A stretch of 64,000 nt of DNA. Source: Candidatus Nanoarchaeia archaeon (GTDB lineage Archaea; Nanobdellota; Nanobdellia; Tiddalikarchaeales; Tiddalikarchaeaceae). Numbering within the stretch: position 1 is the first letter of the stretch; every line of letters begins with the position of its first letter. Under the pieces are notes generated by a model that worked only from the letters and a program-made list of their open reading frames with translations, searched no databases and was not told the DNA's origin. Location of the stretch: contig JBAZFK010000001.1 of the NCBI GenBank assembly GCA_041653395.1, positions 66,728-130,727 on the forward strand, written 5' to 3'. Below are positions 15,079 through 51,480 of the stretch, in pieces. A program made the translations under genes and the position numbers.

Positions 15079-16698
15079 ATGTTTAAAAATTTTTTTTTAT
15101 TGTTAGCATTATTGTTTTTTTCAAAGATTTATGCTTTTGACATTAGCCAAATAAGCCACTATGATTTTGACACCTTTGACTGCAGCCAATTCGACGAGGA
15201 GGAACTAATAAGGCACTGCGAATCAACAAAGTCATTCATAAAAGGATGCTATATAAACCCTAACTCTTGCGATTGCTCATACTTTTCAGAGGATGAAGCT
15301 AAAGCTGAGTGCCAAAAATGGGTTGATGAAGGCATTAAATTAATGAGCCAAAAATCCGAGGAGTGCATGAATGATTTGACTGCTTGCTCGTGTGCTGACT
15401 TGCCTCATCCACGATTAGTTGATGTTTGTGAGAATGAAAAAGCAAAATTTATAGGGAAACTGAAAGCTTTAGAGCAATTATGCTTTGATACTCCGGAGGC
15501 TTGTGACTGCTCAATTTTTGAAAAGTCAGAATATGTTTCTAAATGCAATGAAGAACTAGCCAAAGGTGCAGAAATCAAGGCAGCATGCGAATCAAATATT
15601 TCTTTATGCGACTGCTCAATCATCACTAACCTGGTTGCCAAGCAAAAATGCGAAGAAGCCAAGACTTATTATGTAGATTATGAGTCAAATTTTAGGCAAA
15701 AATGCGAAGATAATTTTGATGAATGCGACTGCACAAAAATACCGAATCTGAACGGTCAAAAACAATGCGAAGAAGCAAAAAAGCAGGCAGTAACTCAAGC
15801 AGAGGGCCAAGTGTATGCAATGCTTTATGACTGCTTCAAAGACATTAATTCCTGCGACTGCACAAAATTAGAAAATACGGGTTACATTAATTATTGCGAA
15901 GAGACTAAGAGTTACGGCTTTGCTTGCATGCAAACAGGAGGAATGGGCTGCGAGCAGCTTGATAACATTGTTTTTTATCCTCCAGGCTTGCCAACATTTT
16001 TGCAGCCTTATTTTGCCCAAACTTTTAAGAGCTTCATTGATGCTGAGAAGTTGAAAGGAATGGCAGCTTCAGCTGAAATTGCCAAAACTTGCGTAATAGA
16101 CCCGGAGAATTGCGACTGCTCAGCTATACCTGTCTATGCAAGGGAGTTTTGCCTAGACAAAAAAGAGATGCAGCTAAACTGCATTAATGGCAACATAACT
16201 GCTTGTGAATTATTAGACCAGACAATTAATGTAGTTCCCTTAACTGCCCCGAAATTTGTCAGGGATTTTCTGGATCCAATACTCAGGCCTTTAGTGTTGC
16301 TTCAAAAGGAGCAAATCAAAGGTCAGTATGCAGAGAAAGTGAAGGATCAAATGCTTGCCTGCATTGATGATGAAAATTCATGCAATTGTGAAAGCGTTCC
16401 TTTGCAATATCAAGAGTTCTGCAGTAATAAGATTAATCTGGTGAAAGAGTGCAGGCTAAAGAATTATGAGTCATGTTTCAGATTAATGGATGAGTCTAAT
16501 ATTCCTGATGATATTCCAGGATTTATCAGAATCTTTGTGGAAAGCTCTGTAAATAGCCAGGTTAACCAGAGAATGAATGAAGTGTTTTTAGAAATAAGGC
16601 CAAGTGCTTGCATAAGCATGAGCGTATCAGAATGCAGGAAATATTATGAGGACAATTGCAAAGGGTTAAGTGTCAATGAGTGCCTAGTTACTCAATAA
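15079..16698 (+). CDS. Secreted Cys-rich repeat protein with about 8 CDC[ST]-x9-11-C-x-E repeats.
   Basis: It has a signal peptide. The repeats include SCDCSYF..AECQ, ACSCADL..VCEN, ACDCSIF..KCNE, LCDCSII..KCEE, ECDCTKI..QCEE, SCDCTKL..YCEE, NCDCSAI..FCLD and SCNCESV..FCSN. Confidence 0.5.
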   Translation: MFKNFFLLLALLFFSKIYAFDISQISHYDFDTFDCSQFDEEELIRHCESTKSFIKGCYINPNSCDCSYFSEDEAKAECQKWVDEGIKLMSQKSEECMNDLTACSCADLPHPRLVDVCENEKAKFIGKLKALEQLCFDTPEACDCSIFEKSEYVSKCNEELAKGAEIKAACESNISLCDCSIITNLVAKQKCEEAKTYYVDYESNFRQKCEDNFDECDCTKIPNLNGQKQCEEAKKQAVTQAEGQVYAMLYDCFKDINSCDCTKLENTGYINYCEETKSYGFACMQTGGMGCEQLDNIVFYPPGLPTFLQPYFAQTFKSFIDAEKLKGMAASAEIAKTCVIDPENCDCSAIPVYAREFCLDKKEMQLNCINGNITACELLDQTINVVPLTAPKFVRDFLDPILRPLVLLQKEQIKGQYAEKVKDQMLACIDDENSCNCESVPLQYQEFCSNKINLVKECRLKNYESCFRLMDESNIPDDIPGFIRIFVESSVNSQVNQRMNEVFLEIRPSACISMSVSECRKYYEDNCKGLSVNECLVTQ

Positions 16699-18096: not shown

Positions 18097-18480
18097 TCAT
18101 TTTCTGCTATAAAATGCTTTCTTTATAGGCTGAAACTTTTTCTCGCTCATCTTATTGGATAAATTAGGAATAATTGCTTCATTAATCTCCTTAATCTCGC
18201 TTTTTCTGCTATTTGTTAACTTCATCACATTGTTAAAAACTGTTAGCCTAGCATTAGTTATCTCATAATTTTTGCCTTTTTTAACTAAACTAATGAAATC
18301 ATCCCATAAATTAAGCAAAATAGTTGCAGAATCATCAGCGATTAAGAAATCCATTGTTTTATGCTCTGAGCCATCCTGGAAACTAACAGCTCTTATTTCA
18401 TAAGTGTCAATAATCTTAAACTGAATAGTCACCCCCCAAACCCTTGGGTCAAGCTTTTCAATTTTAGTAATCTTTGGCAT
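18097..18480 (-). CDS. Single OB-fold ssDNA-binding (SSB/RPA-like) protein.
   Basis: GVTIQFKIIDTYEIRAVSFQDGSEHKTMDFLIADDSATILLNLWDD matches the RPA/SSB OB-fold signature v.v.g.V....r.....G.e..v..l.DeTG.i.ltlW. Confidence 0.45.
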   Translation of the reverse strand: MPKITKIEKLDPRVWGVTIQFKIIDTYEIRAVSFQDGSEHKTMDFLIADDSATILLNLWDDFISLVKKGKNYEITNARLTVFNNVMKLTNSRKSEIKEINEAIIPNLSNKMSEKKFQPIKKAFYSRK

Positions 18481-19235: not shown

Positions 19236-19538
19236 TTATTCTTCGTCTTCTGAATCTTCTTCTATTTCTTCTTCAACTTCTTCTTTTTGTGCTTTTGGCT
19301 TAACTGAGCCTGGATTCTCTTTATTTTTCATATAGCATTCCCTGCAATATACAGGTAATCCTTCTTTTGGCTTAAATGGCACTTCTGCATCTTTTCCGCA
19401 AGCTGAGCACTTTACTTTGTGCATCTCTCTTGGTCCGCCGAAGCTTCTATTTCCGCCTGAAAATCCTCTATTTCCACCTGAAAAGCTTTTTCTTTCTCTT
19501 CCTTGATAAGGCATAAATTTTTTCCCTCCGTTTAACAA
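19236..19538 (-). CDS. Small nucleic-acid-binding-type protein with an RGG/GGN repeat, a CxxC-x17-CxxC zinc ribbon and an acidic tail.
   Basis: It has FSGGNRGFSGGNRSFGG, then KCSACGK...PVYCRECY, then a C-terminal EEVEEEIEEDSEDEE. Confidence 0.45.
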   Translation of the reverse strand: MLNGGKKFMPYQGRERKSFSGGNRGFSGGNRSFGGPREMHKVKCSACGKDAEVPFKPKEGLPVYCRECYMKNKENPGSVKPKAQKEEVEEEIEEDSEDEE

Positions 19539-22365: not shown

Positions 22366-22734
22366 ATGATTAAGACAAAAAATATTTACCTAAGCCATTG
22401 CTACAAAAGCAGGTATAACCTAATTTTGATAGATGAATGCGTTTGCCCAGAATTAAAAGACTATCTCTTATGCAACATCTCAAAATATTTCAAAAAAAAA
22501 TTCACATTATTAAGTGTTAATCATGAGCCTAAAATGAAAGGCATGAATGACAGGGATTTGTCAGATTTATGCTATGATTACAATGGGGTTTTAATAACTG
22601 CTGACAAAGATTTTTTTAACACCTACTTAGGCTACAAAATACTTTATTATGAAGGCCTGAACTGGAATAAGATTATTCAAAAATCAGCGAAATTCCTGAA
22701 AATTAACTCCTTAAATATGAAACAAAAAGCTTAA
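22366..22734 (+). CDS. PIN-like (DUF5615/Mut7-C-like) small nuclease-fold protein.
   Basis: LILIDECV and GVLITADKDF resemble the LaDEN ... lvTkDkDF pattern. Confidence 0.3.
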   Translation: MIKTKNIYLSHCYKSRYNLILIDECVCPELKDYLLCNISKYFKKKFTLLSVNHEPKMKGMNDRDLSDLCYDYNGVLITADKDFFNTYLGYKILYYEGLNWNKIIQKSAKFLKINSLNMKQKA

Positions 22735-22765
22735 TAAAAAGAACTTTTTTAAACTTAATCTTGAA

Positions 22766-23458
22766 ATGAAAGATTGTGTTTATTTTGATTCCCATGTGCA
22801 CATAAGCAATGATAAGGCTTATGATTATTTTATTGATGCTTCCAGATTGGATGAAATTTTAAAAGATAAATTCCTTGATGGTTGCTTGGCAGTAATTCAT
22901 TCAACAGATGAAAATTACGAGAAAGACTGTTCAAAAATCAAGAAATACTGCAAGAAATATTCAAACATTATTCCCTGCGTTGAACTAGCCCAAAAATTTA
23001 TTTTCAATAACTCTGAAATTAAGTGCCATGTAATGTATTTGGCGGATATGCCTATTTATGATGATATCAGCTATGGCTCATGGTTCTGTCATGTTAAAAA
23101 AAAAGGAGGGCTTTTTTTTTCATACGACTTTCGCAACAATTATGTATCTGAGGCCTTAATATGCAATCCAAAAAATGGCAATAAATCAAAAGTGAACATT
23201 GTGGAATCAACCACTGATTGCGAAGAGGCTATTTTTTTGAAATCCCTAAACCTAACAGTGCTTTTAGGCACTGACATTCACCCAAACAAAAACAAAAAAT
23301 ATGCTTCCTATTTAGGTTCAAGAGGCACAATAATAAAATCAGATAAATTTAATTATAACACATTTATGCAAGCTTTGCAGGAGAATTCTTTCGGCTATTT
23401 TTCAAAAACAGTAAAAGCTAATGAACTAATTACATGCAGTTCCAAATTAAAAAAATAA
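22766..23458 (+). CDS. Metal-dependent hydrolase (PHP/TatD-like).
   Basis: It has the N-terminal FDSHVHIS and a later GTDIHP motif. Confidence 0.3.
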   Translation: MKDCVYFDSHVHISNDKAYDYFIDASRLDEILKDKFLDGCLAVIHSTDENYEKDCSKIKKYCKKYSNIIPCVELAQKFIFNNSEIKCHVMYLADMPIYDDISYGSWFCHVKKKGGLFFSYDFRNNYVSEALICNPKNGNKSKVNIVESTTDCEEAIFLKSLNLTVLLGTDIHPNKNKKYASYLGSRGTIIKSDKFNYNTFMQALQENSFGYFSKTVKANELITCSSKLKK

Positions 23459-23965
23459 TCATTTTATTAATAACTTGATTATCTCTTTTGCGAACTCTTT
23501 TGAAGCTGCCGGCCCATTTGCTGTAATGACTTTTCCGTCAACAACGCAGCTTTGGCTGATGTATTCTGCGCCTTGAATAGTAAGATTATTTGCCATTGAT
23601 TCTGATACAGTGGCTTTTTTGCCTTTAAGTATTCCTGAATTAGCAAGTATTACTGGAGCAATGCAGATAGCTGCAACAACTTTGCCTTGAGCGTAAAATT
23701 GTTTTGCAAGACTAAGCATAATAGGGTCATTGAAATACTTACTCATGCCTGTTCCTCCTACAAAAATTATTGAATCATAATTCTTTGCAACTGCATCGCT
23801 GACCAACATGTCAGGCATTATGGTCTTTTTAAGCATTCCAGTGCATTCAGCCATTTTGCTTGAGGCAACAATAGTTTTTATCTTATAATTTTCAAGCTCA
23901 GATTTTGTTACAAATAATTCCTCATCCCTGAAATCTTTATCGGCAATTATTAGCAACGCATTCAT
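23459..23965 (-). CDS. DJ-1/PfpI-family protein.
   Basis: The nucleophile elbow AAICIAPVILANSGILKGKKATV is present. The length is 168 aa. Confidence 0.65.
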   Translation of the reverse strand: MNALLIIADKDFRDEELFVTKSELENYKIKTIVASSKMAECTGMLKKTIMPDMLVSDAVAKNYDSIIFVGGTGMSKYFNDPIMLSLAKQFYAQGKVVAAICIAPVILANSGILKGKKATVSESMANNLTIQGAEYISQSCVVDGKVITANGPAASKEFAKEIIKLLIK

Positions 23966-24142
23966 AGTATAAGCAATTGAGTATTTTATTAAAAATTTTT
24001 TGAGTCATTGCTTTTTTTTGCCATATTGCTTTTAAACATTTGTTTATGTTTTCTTTAAAAAAAAAAGTTTTTAAATGCTTGTATTCAATATTAGTATAAC
24101 ATTTTGTTAAATGTTTAAAACTCGTGAGGAGGAAGTGTGGCA

Positions 24143-24229
24143 ATGGCACCTGTAAAAAAAGGAGCAAAGAAACCTGCTGCTAAAAAAGTAGCTAAGAAAT
24201 CAAAAGCACCAGCTAAGAAAAAAAAATAA
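24143..24229 (+). CDS. Micro-ORF encoding a 28-aa lysine-rich peptide, MAPVKKGAKKPAAKKVAKKSKAPAKKKK. An in-frame GTG at 24137 is also possible.
   Basis: I read this by hand. A GGAGGA SD lies upstream. The composition is H1/HC1-like and basic. Confidence 0.35.
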   Translation: MAPVKKGAKKPAAKKVAKKSKAPAKKKK

Positions 24230-24249
24230 TTAAAAAAGAGGTTTGAATA

Positions 24250-24390
24250 ATGAACAACTACAATTTTAAAGCAAATGACGATGACGAAGACTTCGATGAT
24301 GACGAAGACTTAGATGATGAAGACTCTGATGATGAAGATTTTGATGATGAAGACTCATCAGAAGATGAAGATTCGAGTGAGGATTATTAA
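24250..24390 (+). CDS. Micro-ORF encoding a 46-aa hyper-acidic peptide, MNNYNFKANDDDEDFDDDEDLDDEDSDDEDFDDEDSSEDEDSSEDY.
   Basis: I read this by hand. A GAGGT SD lies 7 nt upstream. It starts 21 nt after the basic micro-ORF. Confidence 0.35.
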   Translation: MNNYNFKANDDDEDFDDDEDLDDEDSDDEDFDDEDSSEDEDSSEDY

Positions 24391-24461
24391 CAGTCGTCAT
24401 TAACTTTTAATTACTTTTATTTTTTTATTTAATTTTTTAAAAAAACTTCAGGTAATACGTT

Positions 24462-24626
24462 ATGAAATGTGACATATGCAAAAAAGCAATGAAGGGATTG
24501 ACAAAATGCGTTGAATGCGGTTCAATGTTTTGCGTTAATTGCGGAGAACAAAAAAGGGAAAGATGCAGTATTTGCATGCAGTTTGAAGACGATTTTGACA
24601 ACCAAGACAGCTCTTCAGATGATTAA
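24462..24626 (+). CDS. 54-aa zinc-ribbon protein (four CxxC pairs) with an acidic tail.
   Basis: I read this by hand: MKCDICKKAMKGLTKCVECGSMFCVNCGEQKRERCSICMQFEDDFDNQDSSSDD. It shares the KC.ECG..FC.NCG core with the ORF at 58718. Confidence 0.4.
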   Translation: MKCDICKKAMKGLTKCVECGSMFCVNCGEQKRERCSICMQFEDDFDNQDSSSDD

Positions 24627-24677
24627 GCTAATTCTTTTATATTAATTTTTTTAAATAATCAGGGAATACCATAATCC

Positions 24678-25754
24678 ATGTTTTCAGTTAATAAATGCGG
24701 CTCATATGAATATTCTGAAGTAAAAAAATCATTGGATCTTTGCCTGAATGAATTAGGCGGGCTCAATAAATTTATCAAAAAAGATGACACTGTGCTAATA
24801 AAGCCGAATCTTTTGATGCCTGCTGACCCTTCGCTTGCAATAACAACTCACCCGATAATAATAAAAATCTTGCTGAACAAGCTTAAAAGAATAGGGTGCA
24901 AAGTGATAATCGCGGATTCCTCTTCAGGTTATTATACTCCTGAATGCATGATGAAGGTGTACAAAGAATGCGGGTACTCGGACTTTAAAGAAATAAACAC
25001 GGATTTTTCAAGCAAAGAATATTCTAATGCTAAAGGCTTCATAAAAAAATATGACTTAATTTCATCTTTTTTCAAAGCTGATAAGATTATCAATGTCTGC
25101 AAGGTAAAAACCCACATGCTTACAACCATGACCTGTGCCACAAAGAACTTGTTCGGATTAATTGCAGGGAAAAACAAGACATATTTTCATTCAAGATTTA
25201 AGACAGTTGATGATTTTTCAAAAATGCTTGTGGACTTGGCATTAATTGCAAATCCCTGTATTAATATTGCTGAGGGAGTAATGGGTATGGAAGGAGAGGG
25301 CCCAAGCAGGGGAAAACTAAAAAAACTAGGATTAATTGCAGTAAGCACGAATTGCTTTGAAATGGACTATAATATCTCAAAAATAATCAGCATTGACTAC
25401 AAAAAAATTCCATATTTAAACATTGCAAAAAATAAAGGGCTATTTAAGGAAAACAATAACTGCTATTTAGACTATAAAACTCCTTTCAAGATGCCTAATT
25501 CAGAGCTACTATCAAGGCTTTTTAAGCTAATACCTTCAAGATTAAGGAGCATTTACACTGATTTTTTTGTAAAAAAACCCTTCATTAAAGATAACTGCAT
25601 AGGCTGTGGCTTATGCGTGAAATCATGCCCTGTAAAAGCCATCTCATTGAAAAAAGGGAAAGCCCATATTGATTATTCTAAATGCATTAGGTGCTATTGC
25701 TGCCATGAAATATGCAGGCATGATTCAATAGAACTCAGAAAGGGAAGGTTATGA
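24678..25754 (+). CDS. DUF362-domain protein with a C-terminal 2x[4Fe-4S] ferredoxin domain.
   Basis: It has the DUF362-type VLIKPN, and CIGCGLCVKSCP plus CIRCYCCHEICR clusters. Confidence 0.6.
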   Translation: MFSVNKCGSYEYSEVKKSLDLCLNELGGLNKFIKKDDTVLIKPNLLMPADPSLAITTHPIIIKILLNKLKRIGCKVIIADSSSGYYTPECMMKVYKECGYSDFKEINTDFSSKEYSNAKGFIKKYDLISSFFKADKIINVCKVKTHMLTTMTCATKNLFGLIAGKNKTYFHSRFKTVDDFSKMLVDLALIANPCINIAEGVMGMEGEGPSRGKLKKLGLIAVSTNCFEMDYNISKIISIDYKKIPYLNIAKNKGLFKENNNCYLDYKTPFKMPNSELLSRLFKLIPSRLRSIYTDFFVKKPFIKDNCIGCGLCVKSCPVKAISLKKGKAHIDYSKCIRCYCCHEICRHDSIELRKGRL

Positions 25755-25790: not shown

Positions 25791-26204
25791 ATGGTTGAAG
25801 AAAAAAAGCTTGAAAATAATGAAGAAAAGCTTGAAGTTGAAGAAGATTTAGATGAAGAAGAAGAGTCAAAAATGGCTTTTGCAAATGCAGAAATAGTAAG
25901 ATTAATCAAGAAGAATTTGCCTGAAGGAAGAATGATAAAGAAAAGGGTGAAGGTTGGAATGAACAAATTTTTGGAAGAGATGGCAACAGAAGTTGTCAAA
26001 AAGCTTGCAAATGAGCCGTATTCTTACATAGAAATAGACATGCTTGAAAGAGCAATTGAGCCCTATAAAAACATTAAAAGCTTGGAAGTTGAAAAGAACA
26101 GAATCATTGCGAATCTTAACAAAATCAAGGCTGATTGCGATGTAATGGTTGATGATATCAACAGAAAATTCTCAATGTTCGAATCTGAAGAAAAAGAATA
26201 CTGA
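25791..26204 (+). CDS. Acidic-N-terminus protein with a possible histone-fold (NF-Y/NC2-like) core.
   Basis: FANAEIVRLIKKNLPEGRMIKKRVKVGMNKFLEEMATEVVKKLA fits the lPiAnv.RimK..LP...is.dA pattern. Confidence 0.3.
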   Translation: MVEEKKLENNEEKLEVEEDLDEEEESKMAFANAEIVRLIKKNLPEGRMIKKRVKVGMNKFLEEMATEVVKKLANEPYSYIEIDMLERAIEPYKNIKSLEVEKNRIIANLNKIKADCDVMVDDINRKFSMFESEEKEY

Positions 26205-28529: not shown

Positions 28530-30338
28530 ATGACTGAAGTATTTTTTAATGGAGTAATAATCGGAACAGTAAAAGAGCCAAAAGAATTCGTGGATAATTT
28601 AATCAAGCTAAGAAGAAATAATGGAATAACAAATAGTTTAAATGTTCATTATGATTCAAAAGCAGATTCAATAGAAGTATTAACAGAGGCAGGAAGAACA
28701 AGAAGGCCATTAATAATTATTGAAAACGGCAAATCAAAATTAACAAATGAGATTGTAGAAAAAGTAAAAAGCGGAATGATAAAATGGAATGATTTGGTAA
28801 AAATGGGAATTGTTGAATATTTGGATGCTGAAGAGGAAGAATCAGCTTATATTGCCTTAGATGAAAAGGACTTGAATCCTAGGCATACTCATTTGGAGAT
28901 AATAAAAGCAGCAATACTTGGAAGCCAGGCAAACTTGGCGCCATTCTCAGACCATAACGCAACAAATAGGGTAATGCTTGCGGCAAAAATGATTACTCAA
29001 GGGCTCGGAATCTACACAACCAATTATAATCTAAGGATTGACAGCGATGTAAGCATAATGCACTATCCCCAAAAGCCAGTAGTTGACACAGTGATTTATG
29101 ACAACGTGAAATTTGACAGCCACCCTGTTGGGCAAAACATAATCATTGCAGTAATGACTAGCGAAGGGTACAACATGGATGACTCAATAATCTTCAACAA
29201 AGACAGCGTTAATCTAGGATTATTCCGTTCAACTTTTTTTAAGCCATATAATTGCGAAGAATTAAGGTATTCAGGTGAAAAAGATGAAATAACGAGGCTG
29301 CCTGACCCTGAAAAAGGAGTCACTAAATTAAGGGGAATGGAATCAGATTATGCGAAATTAGAGGATGATGGAATAATTTATCCAGAAGCTCAAATCTTTC
29401 CAAACAGCGTATTAGTCGGAAAAGTAAGCCCTCCAAGATTCTCAATGGGAACTGAAGAGTTCAGGATGGAAATGAAAGACAAGAATGACTCAAGCATTGC
29501 ATGCGAAAGGGAAACTGGAAAAGTTGACTCAGTAATATTAACGGAATCAGAGGAAGGAAACAAGTTCGTAAACATAAGATTAAGGCAGGCAAGAACTCCA
29601 GAGATAGGCGACAAGTTTGCAACAAGGCACGGGCAGAAAGGAGTAATAGGAATGCTTGTCCCAAAAAAAGATATGCCATTTACATGCGAAGGAATCTTCC
29701 CTGATGTAATCTTCAGCCCCCACAGTATACCTTCAAGAATGACTGTCGGGCAATTAATTGAGGTAATTGCAGGAAAAGTGGGAGCATTAGCAGGAAGGCA
29801 CATTGACGGAACAATCTTCACAGGAGAAAGCGAAAAAGACTTAAGAAGCCAGCTTCATGAGCTAGGTTTCAGGGAAAATGGCTCAGAAACATTATATGAC
29901 GGAAAAACAGGAAGAATGCTTAATGTCAGAATATTTGTCGGAAATATTTATTATATGAGATTAAAATACATGGTTTCAAACAAATACCATATGAGAACAA
30001 GAGGTCCAGTGCAGCTTTTAACAAGGCAGCCAACAGAAGGAAGAAGCAAAGAAGGAGGACTAAGGCTTGGGGAAATGGAAAAGGATGTATTAGTTGCTCA
30101 TGGAGCAGCATTGCTACTTAAGGAAAGGTTTGATTCAGATAAGGAAATAATGCCAGTATGCACTAAGTGCGGAATGATAGCTTACCTGAATTATTACAGA
30201 AACAAAGGAGTATGCAGCATTTGCGGAGAAGATGCTCCAGTAACCTTTATAGAGATGAGCTACGCATTCAAATTACTGCTGGATGAATTAAAGAGCTTAT
30301 GCATCTATCCAAAACTAAATATTGATTACAAGGACTGA
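28530..30338 (+). CDS. rpoB1: RNA polymerase subunit B' (C-terminal half of the split B subunit).
   Basis: It has the Rpb2 C-terminal motifs GDKFATRHGQKG, the hybrid-binding region, and a C-terminal Zn-ribbon CTKCG...CSICG. Confidence 0.9.
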   Translation: MTEVFFNGVIIGTVKEPKEFVDNLIKLRRNNGITNSLNVHYDSKADSIEVLTEAGRTRRPLIIIENGKSKLTNEIVEKVKSGMIKWNDLVKMGIVEYLDAEEEESAYIALDEKDLNPRHTHLEIIKAAILGSQANLAPFSDHNATNRVMLAAKMITQGLGIYTTNYNLRIDSDVSIMHYPQKPVVDTVIYDNVKFDSHPVGQNIIIAVMTSEGYNMDDSIIFNKDSVNLGLFRSTFFKPYNCEELRYSGEKDEITRLPDPEKGVTKLRGMESDYAKLEDDGIIYPEAQIFPNSVLVGKVSPPRFSMGTEEFRMEMKDKNDSSIACERETGKVDSVILTESEEGNKFVNIRLRQARTPEIGDKFATRHGQKGVIGMLVPKKDMPFTCEGIFPDVIFSPHSIPSRMTVGQLIEVIAGKVGALAGRHIDGTIFTGESEKDLRSQLHELGFRENGSETLYDGKTGRMLNVRIFVGNIYYMRLKYMVSNKYHMRTRGPVQLLTRQPTEGRSKEGGLRLGEMEKDVLVAHGAALLLKERFDSDKEIMPVCTKCGMIAYLNYYRNKGVCSICGEDAPVTFIEMSYAFKLLLDELKSLCIYPKLNIDYKD

Positions 30339-50292: not shown

Positions 50293-50330
50293 ATAATATG
50301 AAATGGTGGTATTGGGTATTAATAATTGGA
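50257..50330 (+). repeat. Direct repeat, copy 1 (about 75 nt, 51-nt identical core). It spans the gene 3' end, the intergenic region and the MKWW start module.
   Basis: AAAGATAAGCTTTTTAATAAGAAATTATTAAAATAAATAATATGAAATGGT is identical at 50933. Confidence 0.8.
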
Positions 50331-50915
50331 TTTTTTTTCTTTTATATGAATTCTATTAAATATTTTGAATCTATTATAATTTTATCAATATTACTTTTAC
50401 CAATATTAGGATTAATATTAATTCCACTTATGCTTATAAAAAATCAAGCTGATAAAAAAGAAGAAGAAAAATTGGAAACACAAATAACAGAAAAAGAAAG
50501 AATGGAAGAAGAAAAATTGGAAAGACAAAGAAAACAAGAAGAAAGAATGGAAGAAGAAAAATTGGAAAGACAAAGAAAACAAGAAGAAAGAATGGAAGAA
50601 GAAAAATTGGAAAGACAAAGAAAACAAGAAGAATCAATAAATAGTGAAATAAAAAAACGGAATAAATCATATTTAAAAAGTTCTCATTTTATAAAGACTG
50701 AAAAAAAATCATTAGATGATAAAATATTTTGTTTAAAATGTCATAAAAGATATGAAAATACTTTTGACAGATTTCTGTGCCATTATTGTGATAACTATTA
50801 TTGTTCCTCCCATAGATTACCCGAAAATCATAATTGTAAAGGTAATTTAAAATCACATTCTTCAAGTTTAATGGAGTCCTATTCTAAAGGAAACTTAACC
50901 GCAAGAGGAAAATAA
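50298..50915 (+). CDS. Membrane-anchored AN1-type zinc-finger protein with an internal 15-aa x3 charged repeat.
   Basis: It has an N-terminal TM (MKWWYWVLIIGFFFFY), the repeat ERMEEEKLERQRKQE x3, and C-x2-C-x12-C-x2-C-x4-C-x2-H-x5-H-x-C (CLKCHKRYENTFDRFLCHYCDNYYCSSHRLPENHNC), which is an exact AN1 spacing. Confidence 0.55.
   Translation: MKWWYWVLIIGFFFFYMNSIKYFESIIILSILLLPILGLILIPLMLIKNQADKKEEEKLETQITEKERMEEEKLERQRKQEERMEEEKLERQRKQEERMEEEKLERQRKQEESINSEIKKRNKSYLKSSHFIKTEKKSLDDKIFCLKCHKRYENTFDRFLCHYCDNYYCSSHRLPENHNCKGNLKSHSSSLMESYSKGNLTARGK
50496..50630 (+). repeat. In-frame tandem repeat of 3 x 45 nt inside the AN1 protein gene.
   Basis: Three perfect copies encode ERMEEEKLERQRKQE, preceded by a degenerate partial copy. 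Confidence 0.85.
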
Positions 50916-50932: not shown

Positions 50933-51006
50933 AAAGATAAGCTTTTTAATAAGAAATTATTAAAATAAATAATATGAAATGGTATCATGGGGTATTAATA
51001 ATTGGT
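50933..51006 (+). repeat. Direct repeat, copy 2 (duplicate of 50257-50330).
   Basis: See copy 1. Confidence 0.8.
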
Positions 51007-51480
51007 ATAATTTATTTTTTAATTTCTAATTTAAATTCAGATGTTATTTCTGATTCAAATTCAGAGGTTACAGGTTTAATTACTGCTAGTTCTAATCCTT
51101 TATCTACTTATGAATTAGAGGATATTTTTATGAGTATGAGTGTAGAAGGTGCCTATGATTATAGAACTCAACTCTTTGAAGGAGATGCATATTATGCATT
51201 TAGCGATTTGTTTCCATTAAATAGTGAGTGGGAATATGTTTATACTCCTTTAGGGTATGATGAAAATATGAATTATCATAATCCTAAGGATTTTTGTCAT
51301 GCTGGTTCAAGTCAGGGAGAAAATGTTAATTATGTTTATTGTTCATTCCCTGTTAAAATAACTCCTGTTAGTAATGATGGAACTATTGGGATTGTTAAAA
51401 CAATAAATTTAAATGTAAAAATTGATTCATATTGTTTTCGTGAACCATTTCCTTATTGTGTTTTTACAATAAAAGAATAA
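50974..51480 (+). CDS. Membrane-anchored hypothetical protein sharing the duplicated MKWYxxVLIIG N-terminal module.
   Basis: Its N-terminal TM segment is paralogous to the 50298 ORF start and to the C-terminal anchor of the 52673 ORF. Confidence 0.35.
   Translation: MKWYHGVLIIGIIYFLISNLNSDVISDSNSEVTGLITASSNPLSTYELEDIFMSMSVEGAYDYRTQLFEGDAYYAFSDLFPLNSEWEYVYTPLGYDENMNYHNPKDFCHAGSSQGENVNYVYCSFPVKITPVSNDGTIGIVKTINLNVKIDSYCFREPFPYCVFTIKE

Follow-up and report, generated by a model that had tools for sequence, protein, structure and literature searches.

Three small open reading frames between the CysRS gene and the RNA polymerase operon

The stretch of Candidatus Nanoarchaeia archaeon contig JBAZFK010000001.1 analysed here, 64 kb in full and referred to as the window, has a G+C content of about 31%, and its genes include those for split RpoB'/B'' and RpoA'/A'', NusA, S12, S7 and two elongation factors, an archaeal gene set. 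Between the CysRS gene and the RNA polymerase operon, three very small open reading frames (ORFs) lie on the + strand, flanked by a divergently transcribed DJ-1/PfpI gene and by a DUF362/4Fe-4S gene (24678-25754). On the sequence evidence, the locus is a set of three real, conserved micro-genes, confined to a narrow DPANN clade. They are as follows.

24143-24229, + strand: basic micro-ORF encoding MAPVKKGAKKPAAKKVAKKSKAPAKKKK, 28 amino acids, rich in Lys, Ala and Pro (K/A/P-rich), net charge +13
24250-24390, + strand: acidic gene encoding MNNYNFKANDDDEDFDDDEDLDDEDSDDEDFDDEDSSEDEDSSEDY, 46 amino acids, net charge -27
24462-24626, + strand: Cys8 finger gene, 54 amino acids, with a core (residues 1-40) of net charge +4

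The original prediction, made from the letters of the window, had reported these three ORFs with a GGAGGA and a GAGGT Shine-Dalgarno (SD) site, and all were found at the positions given for them. The start of the basic ORF was the exception: 24137 is an in-frame GTG two codons 5' of the ATG at 24143. The GTG was disfavoured as a start: the codon conserved in the relatives is the ATG at 24143, which is also the one that suits the spacing of the TATA box.

The locus had also been described as unannotated in standard pipelines. This was true of the two smaller peptides in the NCBI protein collection, from which both are absent. On the other hand, NCBI lists the finger as hypothetical protein MFA5303184.1. 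Among the gene calls of the JGI, ENA and Logan contigs, the 46- and 54-amino acid ORFs were present without exception, and the 28/30-amino acid ORF at four of the seven loci.

The three ORFs are the only intergenic ones of extreme charge, at least 20 amino acids long, in the window. None appeared in 30 shuffles of the window, so that these ORFs exceed chance.

Relatives of the locus and evidence for coding

Relatives were found by exact-protein look-ups, a word-indexed search, a full HMMER scan and scans of two collections. Six lineages carried the locus.

The window with L001-L007 and L011: several samples, about 90-95% DNA identity to the window
L008: Logan SRR7589087, DUF362 protein 83% identical to that of the window
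L012: NCBI metagenome-assembled genome JAQVLH01, DUF362 protein 79% identical
L009: JGI 3300037067, DUF362 protein 76% identical
L014: JGI Ga0265297, zinc finger 83% identical
L022/L023: GCA_030154545.1, zinc finger 65% identical

The acidic gene and the finger gene were adjacent in all six, down to the 65% finger identity. The position between the CysRS gene and the RNA polymerase operon is a stable housekeeping synteny in all lineages. The core of this synteny (the CysRS gene and a gene for a 132-137-amino acid protein) was kept in each lineage with a contig long enough, and the DJ-1 and DUF362 genes were variable. Remoter homologues of the finger (L013, L015-L021, L024 and L025) stood in unrelated contexts.

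In the closest comparison, a 774-column alignment over the locus segment was 97% identical, against about 90% in the flanks. Compared with the relatives of about 90% DNA identity, all 11 substitutions within the three ORFs were synonymous third-position changes (two in the basic, four in the acidic and five in the finger ORF). The neutral probability of such an all-synonymous pattern was 1e-4 for the basic ORF (pooled with L012), 3e-4 for the acidic ORF and 9e-5 for the finger ORF. Across lineages, the ratio of non-synonymous to synonymous substitution rates (dN/dS) was 0 for the basic, 0-0.38 for the acidic and 0-0.18 for the finger ORF, compared with about 0.1 for DUF362, and the length differences were all multiples of 3. 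These three results together indicated that the three ORFs are almost certainly protein-coding. The original prediction had named loss of the reading frames in relatives as an outcome that would speak against it; for the acidic and finger genes the frames were kept.

In a six-frame control, the remaining open frames at the locus failed the substitution test. A His-rich antisense ORF across the acidic gene was rejected, with 0 synonymous versus 15 non-synonymous changes. Another antisense ORF, across the finger gene, was disfavoured relative to the sense frame and was without family or fold support.

Codon usage of the small ORFs was that of the rest of the genome and was uninformative on the level of expression. 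The synonymous divergence (dS) from L012 was about 0.3 in the basic and acidic ORFs and about 1.3-1.4 in the finger ORF and the flanks.

This unusually low synonymous divergence is one of the observations that would favour a non-coding reading, in which the locus is a low-complexity purine-rich repeat or leader and the open frames are accidental. The DNA is also repetitive (GATGATGAAGAC units), and its GAN codons keep antisense frames open. On the other hand, substitutions were concentrated at third positions in the annotated frames only, the insertions and deletions were in frame, the SD sites and start codons were invariant, and the shuffles gave no such ORFs. The finger, moreover, has a confident predicted fold and a wider family. 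We consider the non-coding reading extremely improbable, and by these patterns it is effectively refuted for the acidic and finger ORFs.

A conserved acidic protein, always followed by the finger

The acidic protein starts with an MNNYNFKA head, continues with repeats of four or five Asp/Glu residues and a hydrophobic residue, and ends in an SSEDY tail. Asp and Glu make up 28 of its 46 residues (61%), less than the roughly 70 percent that had been quoted for it, and it contains a single Lys.

All six lineages contained the protein. In five of them it was exactly 46 amino acids long with a charge of -26 to -28, and in L022 it was 52 amino acids long. Charge and length thus stayed constant across five lineages despite many exchanges between Asp and Glu. 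The head always read MN(N/K)Y-FKA-DDD, a hydrophobic residue recurred every 5-6 positions, and the SS-acidic tail usually had Tyr as its last residue. In L008 the acidic ORF contained a compensating pair of +3/-3 indels.

The finger gene was always the next gene after the acidic gene in the six lineages. In L008, in which the upstream micro-ORF is disrupted, the acidic gene had a dN/dS of 0.06. The acidic gene thus stays under purifying selection without the K/A/P-rich peptide, and the conserved pairing is that of the acidic protein with the finger, not with the basic peptide.

Pfam, NCBIfam, PADLOC and PHROG gave no family match for either the basic or the acidic peptide. Whether searched alone or as a profile built from five lineages, the acidic peptide had no match even with a limit of E <= 10, as compositional correction removes such sequences. 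The distribution of the acidic protein was therefore read from synteny.

That charge rather than sequence is conserved, with 61% Asp/Glu, would be expected of a buffer or store for cations (Mg2+, Ca2+, Fe) or of a generic, Hero-like protective charged protein. Specific contacts are suggested instead by the conservation of the MNNY-FKA head, the even spacing of the hydrophobic residues and the Tyr at the end, and the conserved adjacency to a similarly tailed finger suggests that the two proteins have a macromolecular partner in common. Neither point is decisive, but we regard a buffering or generic protective role as quite improbable.

Strongly acidic segments (at least 10 Asp/Glu in 14 amino acids) occurred in only three ORFs of the 64 kb, all within 19.2-26.2 kb, so that strong acidity is not a proteome-wide trait. 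Besides the micro-protein at 24250-24390, these were 19236-19538 (- strand), where the segment forms the C-terminal tail of a zf_Tbcl_2 treble-clef finger with an RGG-like N-terminus, and 25791-26204, where it forms the N-terminal tail of a 137-amino acid protein. The acidic tail of the Cys8 finger (24462-24626) falls in the same 7-kb stretch. The order of Tbcl finger, CysRS, then acidic gene, Cys8 finger and 137-amino acid protein was syntenic where the lineage contigs reached.

The upstream basic micro-ORF

The K/A/P-rich peptide was intact only in the window/L001 group (28 amino acids, +13) and in L012 (26 amino acids, +12). Compared with L001 and L012, the basic ORF had 0 non-synonymous and 6 synonymous changes, and an in-frame 6-nt deletion in L012. 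In L014, L009 and L022 the position of the micro-ORF was kept, but not its sequence, and the net charge was only about +3 to +6. In L008 the ORF was disrupted.

L014: 21 amino acids, MMNSNQGAKNASKNAPAKKTK, net charge +5
L009: 16 amino acids, MMHSKKRQQRNMPPKK, net charge +6
L022: 24 amino acids, unrelated sequence, overlapping the start of the acidic gene
L008: SD site lost, AGG in place of the ATG, a TAA in frame, and a VAKKSAAKKVAKK remnant still recognisable

By its DUF362 protein, L008 is nearer to the window than L012 is (83% versus 79%), which indicated that the disruption in L008 is a secondary loss.

The gap between the stop of the micro-ORF and the acidic ATG was 20 nt in the window, 17 nt in L012, 14 nt in L014 and 22 nt in L009, and in L022 the two genes overlapped. 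The micro-ORF thus behaves as a coupled small ORF, which stops near or overlaps the next gene and whose linkage is conserved better than its peptide.

A frameshift on the A9 tract that would fuse the basic and acidic ORFs was considered and rejected, being blocked by a TGA two codons 5' of the acidic ATG in that frame.

The peptide had been likened to histone H1 and HC1. Neither Pfam nor NCBIfam gave a match to a Histone H1 or chlamydial Hc1 domain for the 28/30-amino acid peptide, and the likeness is one of composition only.

The two peptides had been proposed to form a charge-complementary pair. In its strict form this would be an obligate pair, a miniature of prothymosin-alpha/H1, in which the 28-amino acid polycation would compact DNA and the 46-amino acid polyanion would serve it alone, as chaperone or neutraliser. 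In favour of this reading, the two ORFs lie side by side and probably share a transcript, as only 20 nt without a T-run separate them and an SD site leads the second cistron. Purifying selection acts on both in the window/L001/L012 clade, and they have opposite charges (+13 and -27) and low-complexity composition. Such complexes between disordered polyelectrolytes have been described (PMC7661507). On the other hand, L008 has no intact basic ORF, and in L009, L014 and L022 its place is taken by short peptides that are weakly basic and unrelated to it. The length, charge and low dN/dS of the acidic protein persist in these lineages without the K/A/P-rich peptide. In addition, the charges do not match one to one, and there is no family homology to H1 or Hc1. 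The genes of the proposed pair are therefore real and look translated, but its obligate character did not survive the comparison, since the micro-ORF was lost or replaced while the acidic protein stayed unchanged. An obligate pair is, in our judgement, improbable.

A toxin-antitoxin-like pair had been offered as the other possibility. The genes are small, adjacent and oppositely charged, as would suit a polycationic toxin with a polyanionic antitoxin. Alternatively, the acidic protein could serve in anti-defence, as a DNA mimic that inhibits restriction or CRISPR enzymes; many DNA-mimic inhibitors are small and acidic. This was not borne out by the conservation pattern or the context. The putative antitoxin was still selected after the putative toxin had been lost (L008, dN/dS 0.06), PADLOC, PHROG and viral contigs gave no usable matches (the PADLOC match to the finger, at E = 0.36, is meaningless, and no relatives of the locus were found on viral contigs), and the housekeeping synteny from CysRS to the RNA polymerase operon is stable. 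Together, these negative searches and the synteny gave no sign of a mobile or defence context. A toxin-antitoxin or anti-defence module is thus very improbable.

The conserved position of the micro-ORF raised another alternative, that of a purely cis-acting element, either a leaderless entry ORF or a leader peptide, through which ribosomes would be loaded or regulated for the acidic gene, with the Lys-rich peptide as a functionless by-product of an A-rich leader. As expected from such an ORF, its start and the short distance to the acidic ATG were kept in five of six lineages, while the sequence and length of the peptide were not. The A-rich tract was always at the end of the ORF, just 5' of the SD site, and there is a mycobacterial precedent (PMC4633059). 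In the window/L001/L012 clade, on the other hand, the lack of any non-synonymous change beside 6 synonymous ones (P about 1e-4) and the in-frame two-codon deletion point to selection on the peptide. An A-rich leader alone would leave the maintained Ala and Pro codons unexplained, and L008 retains the acidic gene without an intact upstream ORF. A purely cis-acting role is unlikely, yet we give it appreciable weight.

As far as the sequences can tell, the basic peptide is a lineage-restricted, dispensable addition, and it is neither an obligate partner nor a toxin.

The finger as a probable cross-braced two-zinc fold

The third gene had been predicted to encode a zinc ribbon with four CxxC motifs and an acidic tail. 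The 54 amino acids, the four CxxC motifs and the acidic tail were all confirmed, but the ribbon label was not favoured by the matches described below.

The Cys spacing was CxxC-x9-CxxC-x4-CxxC-x7-CxxC, and all eight Cys were invariant in a 15-sequence family alignment. The tail, FEDDFDNQDSSSDD, is disordered and acidic (net charge -7) and resembles the C-terminus of the acidic protein, FDDEDSSEDEDSSEDY.

At E < 1e-3, a search of 1.84 billion proteins gave only 11 representatives of the finger family. Its members are mostly 53-67 amino acids long, with one two-domain member of 101 amino acids. Nearly all carry an acidic, often aromatic C-terminal tail, which is very long in some of the distant ones.

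AlphaFold2 with a 13-sequence alignment gave a predicted local distance difference test score (pLDDT) of 92-95 for residues 1-40 and of 49-58 for the tail. A Foldseek search of this model against the PDB returned nothing significant (best E = 0.34). Its top entries, none of them significant, were mostly cross-brace two-zinc fingers (RIM/FYVE, PHD, AN1, ZZ and RING), not ribbons. In a classic ribbon, two beta-hairpin knuckles each contribute a CxxC to one zinc ion, so that a domain has four ligands. In Pfam, matches below the gathering threshold were obtained to an ANCHR-like B-box (17.7, cut-off 27), zf-C3HC4 (16.7, cut-off 21) and Prok-RING_2 (15.4, cut-off 22.4), and NCBIfam gave no match. 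Because the Cys spacing, the sub-threshold Pfam matches and the top fold matches agree, the finger is probably a cross-braced two-zinc fold, not a classic zinc ribbon.

The finger also fits the archaeal C(P)XCG micro-proteins, a descriptive class and not a homology family, in its 54 amino acids and its CVECG (16-20) and CVNCG (24-28) motifs.

Promoters, SD sites and transcript layout

The signals identified at the locus are listed below.

24060-24122, + strand: promoter/leader block, the best-conserved sequence of the locus
24068-24076, + strand: A-rich/TTTTTAAAT promoter element
24095-24099, + strand: TATAA promoter element
24114-24120, + strand: TTTAAAA promoter element, at -29 from the ATG at 24143
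24098-24115: inverted repeat AACATTT-N4-AAATGTT, perfect over 7 bp, within the invariant promoter block
24128-24133, + strand: GGAGGA, SD-like, 10 nt 5' of the ATG at 24143
24238-24242, + strand: GAGGT, SD core, 7 nt 5' of the acidic ATG
24391-24461, + strand: spacer after the acidic gene, with T-runs at 24405-24408 and 24415-24418 and a T7 run at 24420-24426, archaeal terminator-like
24435-24441, + strand: TATA-like TTTTAAA of the finger gene (-27)
24450-24453, + strand: AGGT of the finger gene
24627-24677, + strand: spacer after the finger gene; contains a T7 run and, at -29 from the start of the DUF362/4Fe-4S gene, a TATA-like box

The promoter block was near-invariant in six aligned sequences from five lineages, in which the coding flanks had 75-91% protein identity, and L022 retained most of it.

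In the window, a TATA-like box began between 45 and 18 nt upstream of the ATG in 39 of 56 genes, and its start position peaked sharply at -33 to -28. SD cores preceded 16 of 64 genes (8% in the background), mostly operon-internal ones such as those for rpoB'', rpoA'' and S7. The position of the TATA mode and the general lack of SD sites suggested leaderless mRNAs in the window. The ATG of the micro-ORF had a TATA-like box 26-31 nt upstream across the lineages, which matches the window-wide mode.

The SD-like core varied between lineages (GGAGG in L012, AGGTGA in L014 and GTGAGG in L009) and was lost in L008 (TAATTAGG). GGAGGA could function as an SD site only if transcription starts 5' of it.

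The acidic ATG had no TATA-like box upstream, and its SD arrangement was the same as that of the operon-internal rpoB'' at 28530. The sequence AAGAGGTTT was invariant in all five aligned lineages, with AGAGGTTT in L022. Downstream, the block GTCATTAA..TTTTTTTATTTAATTTTTT in the acidic-finger spacer was conserved across lineages, as was TAATTCTTTTATATTAATTTTTTTAAA in the finger-DUF362 spacer, invariant in five lineages. The T7 run and the TATA-like box in the latter spacer would mark the end of the finger unit.

From these signals we infer transcript boundaries that divide the locus into a unit of the micro-ORF and the acidic gene, a unit of the finger gene, and a unit beginning with the DUF362 gene. 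This layout appears reasonably probable.

Five lineages had the inverted repeat; in L009 a single base differed, and the replacement was G-U-compatible. There was no covariation, and the fold of the leader RNA was not significant (z = -1.1). A regulon search with the repeat in the window gave 6 matches versus 3.0 expected, and the only exact copy was at the locus, so that the repeat marks no regulon in the window. It may be an operator.

A structured leader RNA or non-coding RNA was rejected as a candidate on the z of -1.1, the missing covariation and the Rfam scan of the whole window, in which only two tRNAs reached the gathering score.

Genes upstream of the locus (window 22366-23965) showed turnover in comparison with L001, L008, L009 and L012. 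The DUF5615-like 122-amino acid and 230-amino acid genes were present in the window and L008 and absent from the L001 group, and L009 had only the one of about 226 amino acids. The DJ-1/PfpI gene was present in the window, L001, L012 and L014 and absent from L008, L009 and L022. The promoter block of the small ORFs was kept throughout despite this gain and loss.

A proposed organisation and function

We propose that three small-protein genes are arranged in two expression units, with a polyanion binder as the conserved product of the first and a cross-brace finger as that of the second. Taken as a whole, this account falls a little short of an even chance.

The first unit would be a bicistron. 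It would begin with a 5'-proximal micro-ORF, leaderless or short-leadered, followed by the SD-led acidic gene 14-22 nt downstream (or overlapping, in one lineage). We infer translational coupling, by which ribosomes finishing the micro-ORF would be handed on to the acidic gene. In the window lineage, the micro-ORF appears to have turned into a selected 28-amino acid K/A/P-rich peptide similar to an H1 tail, a young and dispensable accessory.

The conserved product of this unit would be the acidic protein, a disordered polyanion selected for length and charge, not for exact sequence. Much like a nucleic acid, it may bind basic nucleic-acid-binding proteins electrostatically or act as their chaperone, and the co-translated Lys-rich peptide, where present, would be one possible client. 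The conserved aromatic head and the spaced hydrophobic residues suggested contacts with the surface of a basic protein.

The second unit would be the separately promoted 54-amino acid cross-braced two-zinc finger with its disordered acidic tail. Because this tail resembles the C-terminus of the acidic protein, the finger probably engages the same kind of basic partner. The long acidic tails that distant family members fuse to the same finger are a hint of a common partner type. The polyanion-binder mechanism, considered by itself, remains a tentative suggestion and is rather doubtful.

In the most far-reaching reading, set out under Significance, one candidate partner of the acidic protein and the finger would be the 137-amino acid protein encoded nearby at 25791-26204 (+ strand). 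Its N-terminal tail is acidic, and it may have a histone fold. Its orthologues are encoded at the following positions.

L001: 7331-7744
L008: 9332-9745
L009: 9332-9727
L022: 3244-3642

The protein was 85-98% identical across lineages in which DUF362 was only 75-91% identical, and in L022 it came directly after the finger. Pfam CBFD_NFYB_HMF matched it below the cut-off (E = 0.0015, 19.2 versus 21.4 bits). The histone fold was not confirmed by a single-sequence AlphaFold2 model, which was poor (pLDDT 57), or by a profile of the orthologues against the PDB, which found nothing.

Several points weigh against the proposed organisation and function. The low dS of the basic and acidic ORFs in comparison with L012 points to some extra constraint at the nucleotide level, for which codon usage is no explanation. 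The loss in L008 is known from one Logan contig only, and the distribution of the acidic family rests on synteny, not on sequence search. The three TATA-like elements of the promoter block and the GGAGG could equally well fit a short SD-led leader. Finally, the binder or chaperone role was drawn from composition and from analogy with prothymosin-alpha/H1 (PMC7661507).

Comparison with known systems

The locus is a variant of the leader ORF plus small-protein operon, and also of the zinc-finger micro-protein.

The archaeal zinc-finger micro-proteins (Haloferax volcanii HVO_2753 and HVO_0758, and Halobacterium Brz; PMC6562870, PMC10716476, PMC11241148, PMC2253796) are likewise at most 70 amino acids long, consist essentially of one zinc domain and are encoded by stand-alone genes. 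The finger described here has two CxxCG motifs, CVECG and CVNCG, in common with the haloarchaeal C(P)XCG proteins. It differs from them in its eight invariant Cys, in a cross-brace spacing that implies two zinc ions, in its acidic tail and in its occurrence in DPANN. No sequence homology to the haloarchaeal zinc-finger micro-proteins was detected.

With the cross-braced binuclear fingers (PHD, FYVE, RING, B-box, AN1 and ZZ) the finger shares the C2-C2-C2-C2 spacing, with x4 between ligands 4 and 5. Unlike them, it has only Cys and no His among its ligands, is prokaryotic and stands alone in 40 residues, and all matches to them were below threshold.

Escherichia coli YacG combines a C4 finger, with one zinc site, and an acidic Trp-containing tail, and inhibits gyrase. 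Eukaryotic DSS1/Sem1 is a 70-amino acid acidic-aromatic DNA mimic. Both are very small, contain a finger and/or acidic runs with aromatic or hydrophobic residues, and occupy the nucleic-acid-binding surface of a partner. We know of no homology between either of them and the micro-proteins at this locus.

In prothymosin-alpha/H1 (PMC7661507), an acidic disordered protein likewise stands beside a Lys/Ala/Pro-rich polycation of the H1-tail type. That system is eukaryotic, with separately encoded proteins of about 110 and 200 amino acids. In the window the proteins are 46 and 28 amino acids long and co-encoded, and the cation is dispensable.

Leaderless polycistronic mRNAs of mycobacteria can begin with small ORFs that stop near or overlap the next gene, and this linkage is conserved better than the peptides (PMC4633059). 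Like the ORFs here, they are often missed by annotation pipelines. The mycobacterial system is bacterial, and its start sites and ribosome occupancy were measured, whereas the present one is archaeal and is deduced from the positions of TATA and SD elements. A further difference is the purifying selection on the peptide in one clade here. The authors of that study suggested that leader small ORFs may incubate new first cistrons. By analogy, the six-lineage series of micro-ORFs fits this incubator picture.

Other features of the window

Two adjacent genes, 50298-50915 and 50974-51480 (+ strand), were preceded by 45 nt of nearly the same sequence (C[CT][CT][CT]AAAGATAAGCTTTTTAATAAGAAATTATTAAAATAAATAAT), a sign of probable tandem duplication. 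A basic OB-fold protein is encoded at 18097-18480. The product of the gene at 15079-16698 (+ strand), 539 amino acids long, has a hydrophobic segment near its N-terminus and a large number of CDCS/CxC motif repeats; it is apparently a secreted protein of Cys-rich repeats.

Significance

The solid result is a modest one, namely three lineage-restricted, conserved micro-genes. None of the three proteins belongs to a curated family, and the small proteins of DPANN are almost unstudied.

If the proposed mechanism is true, the locus would offer a model of a charge-conserved polyanionic binder that is small enough for chemical synthesis, a new family of acidic-tailed two-zinc micro-proteins, and a six-lineage evolutionary series from a leader ORF to a selected Lys-rich peptide in one clade.

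In its most far-reaching form, which we regard as a long shot, the 46-amino acid protein would be a minimal archaeal polyanionic chaperone or nucleic-acid mimic that, with the finger, handles basic proteins of chromatin or of the ribosome in DPANN cells with their reduced genomes, and the 28-mer would be a newly evolved client. If this were true, the locus would represent a prokaryotic counterpart of prothymosin-alpha/H1, caught arising from a leader ORF.

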